A stretch of 14,062 nucleotides of DNA from Escherichia coli (lineage in GTDB: Bacteria; Pseudomonadota; Gammaproteobacteria; Enterobacterales; Enterobacteriaceae), in NCBI RefSeq assembly GCF_003334385.1, contig NZ_QOWN01000066.1; one strand, written 5' to 3'. Below are positions 7,616 through 7,951 of this stretch, piece after piece. The notes under the pieces are model-generated. The model had not been told where the DNA came from. It ran no database searches and saw nothing but the letters and a program-made list of their open reading frames with translations. Each line of letters opens with the position of its first letter. Positions within the stretch are counted from its first letter, which is position 1. The translations under genes were made by a program, and so were the position numbers.

Positions 7616-7951
7616 ATGGCTTCTAAAAAATTTTACTCAGATGATGACATCCAGCTGGCAAAAGCTGCTTTATCGGAATTGCCAGACCTCACCGCTCAAC
7701 GGAAAACATTGCGTGATTTTCTTGATGCCATTCGTGATGACATCATTGTCCTGGTAAGGACAAAGGGTTATACACTGACAGATGTTCGTGACACGCTCAA
7801 AAATGCAGGGTATGAAGTAGGAGAGAAAGCACTTCGTGACATTATTCGGGAAGCAGAATCGAAAAAACCATCCCGCCGTTCTTCCTCTAAAACAGCACCT
7901 AAAAAGACAGATTCAGGCAGGAAAGATGGCATCGATATGAACAACAATTGA
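7616..7951 (+). CDS. Hypothetical small protein with a basic Ser/Lys/Arg-rich C-terminal tail, 111 aa
   Basis: ATG at 7616 preceded by GGAGAG 9 nt upstream (the ORF track's GTG at 7610 is less likely). Ends at a 19-bp palindrome and a bidirectional terminator. Confidence 0.55.
   Translation: MASKKFYSDDDIQLAKAALSELPDLTAQRKTLRDFLDAIRDDIIVLVRTKGYTLTDVRDTLKNAGYEVGEKALRDIIREAESKKPSRRSSSKTAPKKTDSGRKDGIDMNNN

Follow-up and report, generated by a model that had tools for sequence, protein, structure and literature searches.

YggA, encoded beside the transfer origin of IncI1 plasmids, as a candidate repressor of the nikAB relaxase operon

What does the first gene past the transfer origin (oriT) of an IncI1 plasmid do? 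We asked this of yggA (7616-7951, + strand) in a stretch of Escherichia coli DNA of 14,062 nucleotides (nt) from contig NZ_QOWN01000066.1 (assembly GCF_003334385.1), here called the window. The window is ~99% identical to IncI1-complex plasmids, and comparison with plasmid records places it in the transfer-origin region of R64/ColIb-P9/pESBL-like plasmids. Its sequence makes it the classical leading region of R64/ColIb-P9. yggA diverges from nikA (7051-7383, - strand), which encodes a relaxosome accessory protein and is followed on the same strand by nikB (4328-7039), which encodes a MOBP relaxase. An initial annotation had suggested that the yggA product is a relaxosome or oriT-associated factor, or a regulator of nikA.

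We found that regulation of nikA is the best supported of these alternatives, by homology and by the predicted geometry of the promoters. The explanation that we favor, and consider probable, is that YggA is a small helix-turn-helix (HTH) DNA-binding protein of the I-type MOBP oriT/relaxase module that represses nikAB and is dispensable for transfer. YggA would bind a ~30-bp dyad-symmetric element (7530-7558) between the back-to-back nikAB and yggA promoters. When bound, it would repress nikAB and, probably, transcription from its own promoter. The sense orientation of yggA on the transferred strand would keep it silent for as long as the plasmid in a new host is single-stranded. Once the complementary strand has been made, nikAB and yggA would both fire in a cell that is free of repressor. 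Relaxase expression would then return to a low level as YggA accumulates. To the initial annotation the analysis adds a conserved linkage to nikA, a predicted HTH fold, a candidate operator and a probable kinship with StbA and TraK, and it brings a widespread misannotation to light.

yggA is a conserved gene linked to nikA

yggA is a real gene, with purifying selection on the first 82 residues of its product. The listed open reading frame (ORF) opens at a GTG at 7610, and it is the ATG at 7616 that lines up with the starts of relatives. From this ATG to the stop codon (7949-7951) the coding sequence specifies 111 amino acids (WP_000157095.1; Hp23 of pESBL), and a Shine-Dalgarno sequence, GGAGAG (7602-7607, + strand), can be read 8 nt before the ATG. 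Plasmids that are 99% identical to the window have the gene annotated at the same place, in some records under its R64 name, yggA, and Hp23 of pESBL is listed as "Protein YggA" (PMC4288162). DNA matches to yggA were found in 2,104 plasmid records, and tblastn gave 3,558 protein matches. For residues 1-82, the ratio of non-synonymous to synonymous substitution rates (dN/dS) was 0.13-0.15 relative to homologues that are ~63% identical. Relative to the IncK2/Z copy, synonymous sites were saturated (51 of 60 changed), and 28 of 192 non-synonymous sites had changed.

A homology search, which the initial annotation had proposed, recovered a YggA/Orf35 family: phmmer found 77 representatives among 1.84 billion representative proteins. 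Orf35 of pCTX-M3, which is an IncM plasmid, is a YggA homologue that is 32% identical to R64 YggA and is encoded in the same position (PMC6112013). By BLASTP, YggA and the IncL/M protein are 38% identical over 73 amino acids (E 5e-13). The homology extends across an ~80-residue N-terminal domain with LPDL and KGY motifs. The gene was thus already named; its IncI1 copy has been little studied, and its homologue Orf35 has already been studied.

In every locus with usable flanks, the YggA homologue was divergent from nikA or mobA and a MOBP relaxase gene, across an origin of 150-400 bp. These loci were from IncL/M, IncK2/Z, IncI-gamma and IncX1-mobilisable plasmids, from IncFII plasmids with an I-type type IV secretion system (T4SS; mating pair formation type MPF_I), from plasmids of Pseudomonas, Tatumella, Serratia, Enterobacter and Citrobacter, and from genome and metagenome contigs. 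The genes downstream of the yggA homologues varied by locus (DUF4942, DUF932, DUF5983, LPD29 and others). Because the linkage to nikA is constant while the downstream neighbours vary, we consider yggA to be part of the relaxase/oriT module and not leading-region cargo. This gene context is the strongest clue to YggA.

The nick region is of the MOBP type (ACATCCTG followed by TC; 7467-7476, + strand), a motif found both in the window and in related loci. Following the RP4/R64 consensus YATCCTG/Y (the slash marks the cut), we take cleavage to occur between 7474 and 7475. The motif is 141 nt upstream of the yggA ATG and the gap holds no ORF. That is, yggA is the gene nearest the nick on the leading side, as the initial annotation had it. 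On the other side of the nick, 5' of it and toward nikA, are an 18-nt imperfect inverted repeat (7429-7466), presumably the NikA-binding repeat region of R64-type origins, and a conserved oriT element, GGGGTGTCGGGGCaaaGCCCTGACC, with an 8-bp inverted repeat (7399-7424). The GGGGTGTCGGGGCaaaGCCCTGACC element was matched in 10 of 14 origins scanned, and the region tested was too short in three of the other four. The origins of the related loci carry the same GGTGTCGGGGC...GCCCTGA element as the window, and a nick-like motif.

The layout of RP4/R64-type origins sets which strand is transferred. With the inverted repeat 5' of the nick, toward nikA, and with ardA, psiA and psiB on the far side of yggA, the + strand should be the transferred strand, with DNA above 7475 entering first. 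(These three genes were placed further along, past yggA, from the best-matching plasmid.) yggA is sense on this strand and therefore should not be transcribable before complementary-strand synthesis. The earlier view that it cannot be read from the incoming single strand holds to the extent that the RP4/R64 layout applies. The initial annotation had also set yggA on the opposite strand from the rest of the leading region. It is on the + strand, but so is an HTH gene at 9465-9716 on the leading side. We rejected an anti-defence role for YggA because its strand is unsuited to early expression from single-stranded DNA and because it had no PADLOC matches.

The oriT core (~7398-7483) is the only part kept by oriT-only miniplasmids, and the oriT annotation of pESBL covers only this core (PMC4288162). 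Many very small plasmids (1.5-3.5 kb) of E. coli, Klebsiella, Enterobacter and Phytobacter have the core alone, the GGGGTGTCGGGGCaaaGCCCTGACC element included, without nikAB or yggA (records H124, H126, H128, H130, H131, H135 and H170-H175). Presumably I-complex plasmids mobilise them in trans.

Orf35 and the region between nikA and yggA

Published transposon insertion sequencing (Tn-seq) of pESBL gave Hp23/YggA scores of 0.99 for non-essential, 0.01 for required for transfer and 0.00 for essential for maintenance, whereas NikA and NikB scored 1.00 for transfer (PMC4288162). yggA was therefore dispensable for transfer in that screen.

The homologue Orf35 has a repressor-like phenotype. In pCTX-M3, orf35::cat left self-transfer unchanged, increased mobilisation of an oriT plasmid >100-200-fold, and raised transcripts of nikA 40-fold, nikB 23-fold and traH 80-fold (PMC6112013; PMC7440800; PMC8125031). 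The authors proposed orf35-dependent repression of the nikAB-tra operon and described R64 yggA as unstudied (PMC6112013; PMC7440800; PMC8125031). Like YggA, Orf35 (named MobC in pOXA-48-type IncL annotations) is encoded by the first leading-side gene, divergent from nikA-nikB, has a conserved N-terminal domain followed by a basic tail, and is dispensable for transfer. Unlike YggA, it controls the whole T4SS, since nikAB and tra form one operon in IncM; in IncI1, nikAB stands alone, and control by YggA should reach less far. The operator regions of the two genes could not be aligned. The transcript levels in the orf35 mutant support the earlier suggestion that yggA regulates nikA, and the promoter geometry described below fits it. 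By contrast, the Tn-seq scores and the orf35 mutant contradict a required role in the relaxosome; a relaxosome or oriT-associated factor was the other suggestion.

IncI1 plasmids are major carriers of genes for extended-spectrum beta-lactamases. If YggA limits the relaxase as Orf35 does in IncM, then it would cap IncI1 mobilisation of co-resident oriT-bearing small plasmids, many of which exist. Removal of yggA would be a simple route to high-efficiency IncI1 donor strains.

The gap between nikA and yggA contains candidate promoters for both. A promoter scan predicted a sigma-70 promoter for yggA at 7553-7582 (+ strand), with a -35 of CTGCCA, an 18-nt spacer and a TG-extended -10 of TAAAAT. 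Of 12 independent family members, 9 have the -10 word TAAAATC(A) upstream (null mean 1.9), and it beat the best k-mer of every shuffle. On the - strand, we read a perfect TATAAT (ATTATA on the + strand; 7491-7496) as a candidate -10 for nikAB, the oriT operon. ATTATA is invariant in all seven aligned origins; the accompanying -35, in the area of ~7513-7521, is weak. This TATAAT is likely the nikAB -10, and the transcript would then cross the nick.

A conserved block, GACGGCAGAGGCAG... (7530-7558), lies between the divergent promoters and is a candidate operator. It is kept across the seven aligned origins while its flanks diverge. An inverted-repeat search found a perfect palindrome within it, GGCAGGGC gca GCCCTGCC (7539-7557), with the nikA -35 area on one side of it and the yggA -35 (7553-7558) on the other, its right arm overlapping the latter. 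Position 6 of the arms is G:C in IncI1 types and T:A in Enterobacter/Citrobacter types, and one mobilisable plasmid has A:T at position 7; at these two positions both sides have changed together. Across the alignment, 92.9% of cells were paired, and 3 of 500 shuffles equalled the observed score. The palindrome is the best operator candidate, and the two compensatory changes are suggestive.

In one plasmid the palindrome and the yggA allele have separate affinities. Locus L015 (Citrobacter freundii p26019-4, 1201-1708) has an origin, palindrome and yggA promoter that are 88% identical to the Enterobacter type until ~20 nt before the start codon. Its yggA coding sequence is a strongly diverged allele, with roughly 45% amino acid identity to the Enterobacter type as judged by reading the translated sequences. 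The switch in identity near the yggA start therefore points to a recombination breakpoint at the start of the gene.

It is also conceivable that the palindrome acts in cis as a DNA structure of the origin, such as a hairpin formed at 65-83 nt from the 5' end of the transferred strand, or is a site for some other protein, and that the function of YggA is unrelated or negligible. Consistent with this, the compensatory changes keep base pairing, the palindrome is on the strand that enters the recipient first, and in L015 it goes with the oriT/promoter segment and not with the yggA allele. However, it is outside the oriT core 7398-7483, both as kept by oriT-only plasmids and as annotated in pESBL. 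It is positioned exactly between, and overlapping, elements of the two divergent promoters, and no T-run follows it. A negligible function for YggA would also be at odds with the strong purifying selection on the protein and its invariant linkage to nikA. We consider this explanation quite unlikely.

Other signals in the region were less useful. The half-site GGCAG was found in 9 of the 12 independent upstream regions (null mean 3.8, uncorrected P 0.003), a count not above that of the best chance k-mer in those regions (95th percentile, 10); the shared half-site is a lead only. Elsewhere in the window there were eight GACGGCAGAGGCAG-like matches (1.3 expected). We set these aside as uninformative, as they lie partly in two copies of one repeat and within the stem-loop of that repeat. 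The likeness of the palindrome to the 8-bp oriT repeat (7404-7422, three mismatches) was at chance level.

The YggA domain and its likeness to StbA and TraK

The conserved N-terminal domain of YggA (amino acids 1-82; 7616-7861) has five predicted helices, with a predicted HTH at 54-82. An AlphaFold model built on 49 homologues placed the helices at 9-20, 32-38, 40-48, 54-63 and 70-82, with a confidence score (pLDDT) of ~90. The remaining residues (83-111; 7862-7948) form the basic Ser/Lys/Arg-rich tail noted in the initial annotation. This tail has a net charge of +6, is 31% Lys/Arg, is predicted to be disordered and was modelled at low confidence (pLDDT ~60). A net positive tail is present in 47 of the 49 family members (median length 25), and its sequence has no conservation or constraint and evolves freely relative to the domain.

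The family profile matched the C-terminal HTH domain of sigma-54 (E 1e-3) and also the HTH domains of StbA and VraR, and the best structural match to the YggA model was the DNA-binding domain of StbA (PDB 7pc1). Foldseek against AFDB found family members only, labelled MobC. In the model, the DNA-binding determinant is most likely the helix at 54-63, the turn and the helix at 70-82, and not the tail, where the initial annotation had put it. Because the tail is variable in sequence and low in model confidence, it would help DNA contact at most non-specifically. The tail is a genuine feature of the family, but the specific DNA-binding element is probably elsewhere.

Proteins of other plasmid groups are encoded in the same position. 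The order is trwA-oriT-stbA in R388 and traJ-oriT-traK in R751, the same layout as nikA-oriT-yggA. Comparison of families by hhalign gave a probability of 74% over 76 columns for YggA and StbA (reversed or shuffled controls, <=0.6%), 42% over 46 columns for YggA and TraK (shuffled controls, <=11%), and 33% over 58 columns for StbA and TraK (run without a control). Reciprocal hidden Markov model scores among the three families were 12-21 bits, and decoys scored <=8 bits. In addition, two divergent YggA-family members, and only these, precede a gene for a deviant Walker-A ATPase of the ParA/TraL-like kind, which is the arrangement of stbAB and traKL. These two (P0121 and P0123) have the ATPase gene in the same orientation, unlike IncI1, and are on short metagenomic contigs (L022, 62-1209; L023, 303-1014); the ATPase frame of L022 is split.

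Guynet et al. used iterated PSI-BLAST to join StbA, TraK, MobC of pTF-FC2 and YciA of R721, a set that does not include IncI1 YggA, and pointed out that all four are encoded by the first genes to enter the recipient (PMC3098194). StbA of R388 represses leading-region promoters and limits conjugation 50-fold. StbA and TraK of IncP, in the same position as YggA, each bind DNA in the stretch from nic to the gene that encodes them, and they repress or limit conjugation; by analogy YggA might do likewise. We regard YggA as probably working in the manner of the StbA/TraK proteins. Its membership in an StbA/TraK superfamily is plausible but unproven.

Like yggA, stbA of the IncW plasmid R388 is the first gene 3' of nic and is divergent from the relaxase operon; it encodes a small HTH protein, as YggA is predicted to be. 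StbA differs in having a distinct C-terminal domain, an StbB ATPase partner and a need in plasmid stability, none of which was seen for YggA. The DNA sites of StbA are arrays of 9-bp direct repeats at a spacing of 11 bp, and none was seen for YggA: a search of 7360-7640 for a repeat family of the stbDR type found none. Just one stretch (TGCATCAT, 7511-7518) matches the stbDR consensus, at 8/9 positions; it was discarded, as it is not conserved in relatives.

It is possible that YggA is an orphan StbA-like protein for positioning or segregation, which tethers the oriT region to the nucleoid and so restrains conjugation as StbA does in R388. Several findings do not fit well with this. Beside IncI1 yggA there is no gene for an StbB/TraL-like partner, the next gene being a convergent DUF4942 gene, and the intergenic region has no stbDR-like array. 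Furthermore, the pESBL score for maintenance was 0.00, and IncI1 plasmids have separate ParA-like and ParB-like genes. We view a positioning role as unlikely.

TraK of RP4 and R751 (PF17273) and the TraK-like MobC of pTF-FC2 and IncP-6 plasmids have the same position and orientation by a MOBP origin as YggA. The TraK and YggA modules are also alike in having an operon with TraJ/NikA-like and TraI/NikB-like genes across the origin. Unlike yggA, traK has traL and traM after it. Mobilisation of pTF-FC2-type plasmids requires the TraK-like mobC; YggA and Orf35, by contrast, can be dispensed with.

These likenesses bear on another explanation, that YggA is an architectural relaxosome protein of the TraK/MobC type. 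It would coat or bend the DNA between nic and yggA and stimulate nicking or strand transfer, and any effect on transcription would be a by-product of assembly over the promoters. IncP TraK, in the same position, binds between nic and traK (PMC3098194), and a TraK-like mobC is within the minimal mobilisation region of pTF-FC2-type plasmids (PMC4785139). The weak likeness to the TraK profile exceeds that of the shuffled controls, and the basic tail suits non-specific DNA contact. On the other hand, the transfer score of YggA was 0.01 and not 1.00, as for NikA and NikB. Deletion of orf35 raised mobilisation and did not lower transfer. The oriT-only miniplasmids and the defined oriT core do without the yggA-proximal region. 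We doubt that YggA is such a protein.

A broader proposal is more tentative than the favored explanation of YggA as a repressor of nikAB. YggA and Orf35 could be an orphan branch of the StbA/TraK proteins that lacks the ATPase. The origins of the IncI, IncL/M, IncP, IncW, IncN and IncQ-2 types might then share an ancestral HTH gatekeeper whose gene comes first 3' of nic and is always in the sense orientation on the transferred strand. Absent on arrival, it would permit a burst of relaxase once the DNA is double-stranded and then shut expression down, through the dyad operator 7539-7557 in this case. If linked to StbA and TraK, YggA would bring the first leading-region genes of several plasmid groups together.

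Several observations weigh against YggA as a repressor that acts at the palindrome. The only direct experiment on IncI1 YggA is the Tn-seq. For the orf35 result the gene had been replaced, and supplying it in trans complemented weakly and in a condition-dependent way (PMC6112013); because complementation was weak, replacement of orf35 may have affected the adjacent promoter in cis. IncI1 nikAB is separate from the tra genes, and the effect of YggA may therefore be smaller than in IncM. Two independent compensatory events are all that stand behind the palindrome, which makes them suggestive only. L015 pairs an Enterobacter-type palindrome and promoter with a YggA allele roughly 45% identical to that type, and so the palindrome does not strictly co-vary with YggA. 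Either DNA specificity is conserved throughout the family or something else reads the palindrome. Against the profiles of StbA and TraK, IncI1-type YggA itself reached only 3-6 bits, the link being made through divergent members. Finally, Foldseek of the YggA model against PDB gave matches at chance level only, for example to calmodulin.

The MobC name and other features of the window

The name that RefSeq and UniRef give the YggA cluster is 'molybdopterin-guanine dinucleotide biosynthesis protein MobC'. The largest cluster has ~2,700 members, and the molybdopterin name is on >2,600 database sequences. We rejected a role in molybdopterin-guanine dinucleotide synthesis: no model supports it, and the gene context is that of a plasmid transfer origin. 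YggA matched no significant family in Pfam, NCBIfam, PHROGs or PADLOC. In NCBIfam there were chance-level matches to transposase HTH models only, and none to the curated Mob models for this synthesis. Neither the query nor any of the 49 family members matched Pfam PF05713 (MobC of the RSF1010/ColE1 type). The query had no significant match to PF17273/DUF5338 (TraK), to which two family members matched at E 0.007-0.1.

In MOBP mobilisation modules, the gene that diverges from the relaxase operon is labelled MobC, and the molybdopterin name appears to be a mistaken expansion of this abbreviation. MobC of RSF1010 is encoded in a divergent position by oriT. Apart from this position, YggA has only the name in common with that protein (PF05713) and with MobA/MobB, there being no Pfam or NCBIfam matches. 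The TraK-like MobC is probably the source of the label. Fixing the molybdopterin name would clear an error that has spread over thousands of records.

The remaining features are as follows. The gene order, as given, begins at the left with trbB and trbC on the + strand, and a TolA-like gene (3829-4260, - strand) lies next to nikB. The DUF4942 gene downstream of yggA is at 8037-8888 (- strand). Between these two convergent genes, a terminator scan and the sequence itself identified a GC-rich hairpin with flanking A- and T-runs (8004-8023). This is likely a bidirectional terminator, in which case yggA would be monocistronic. A second inverted repeat (7950-7968), with perfect 8-bp arms (GATGTGAC-aat-GTCACATC), overlaps the yggA stop codon and has no T-run after it.

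Further along, two 42-nt direct repeats (9356-9397 and 9423-9464), each with a palindrome AAGTGAA-n4/5-TTCACTT, are directly 5' of the HTH gene at 9465-9716. They are likely a pair of operators for this putative regulator. We also found two copies (9013-9261 and 11883-12128) of a ~250-nt non-coding element that is GC-rich and hairpin-rich, with 76-95% identity in three blocks. Both copies are upstream of leading-region genes on the - strand, and the element resembles the single-strand promoter (Frpo/ssi-type) elements of IncI1 and F leading regions (PMC12672017). An Rfam scan of the whole window gave no match, including to this element. Lastly, a 69-amino-acid ORF (9747-9956) repeats the C-terminal segment of the adjacent gene for an Rpn-family recombination-promoting nuclease (9979-10950), with 75% DNA identity. 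The repeat that joins the two (D2) is at 9768-9877 and 9991-10100. From its sequence, the ORF looks like a stand-alone copy of the C-terminal domain of the nuclease.
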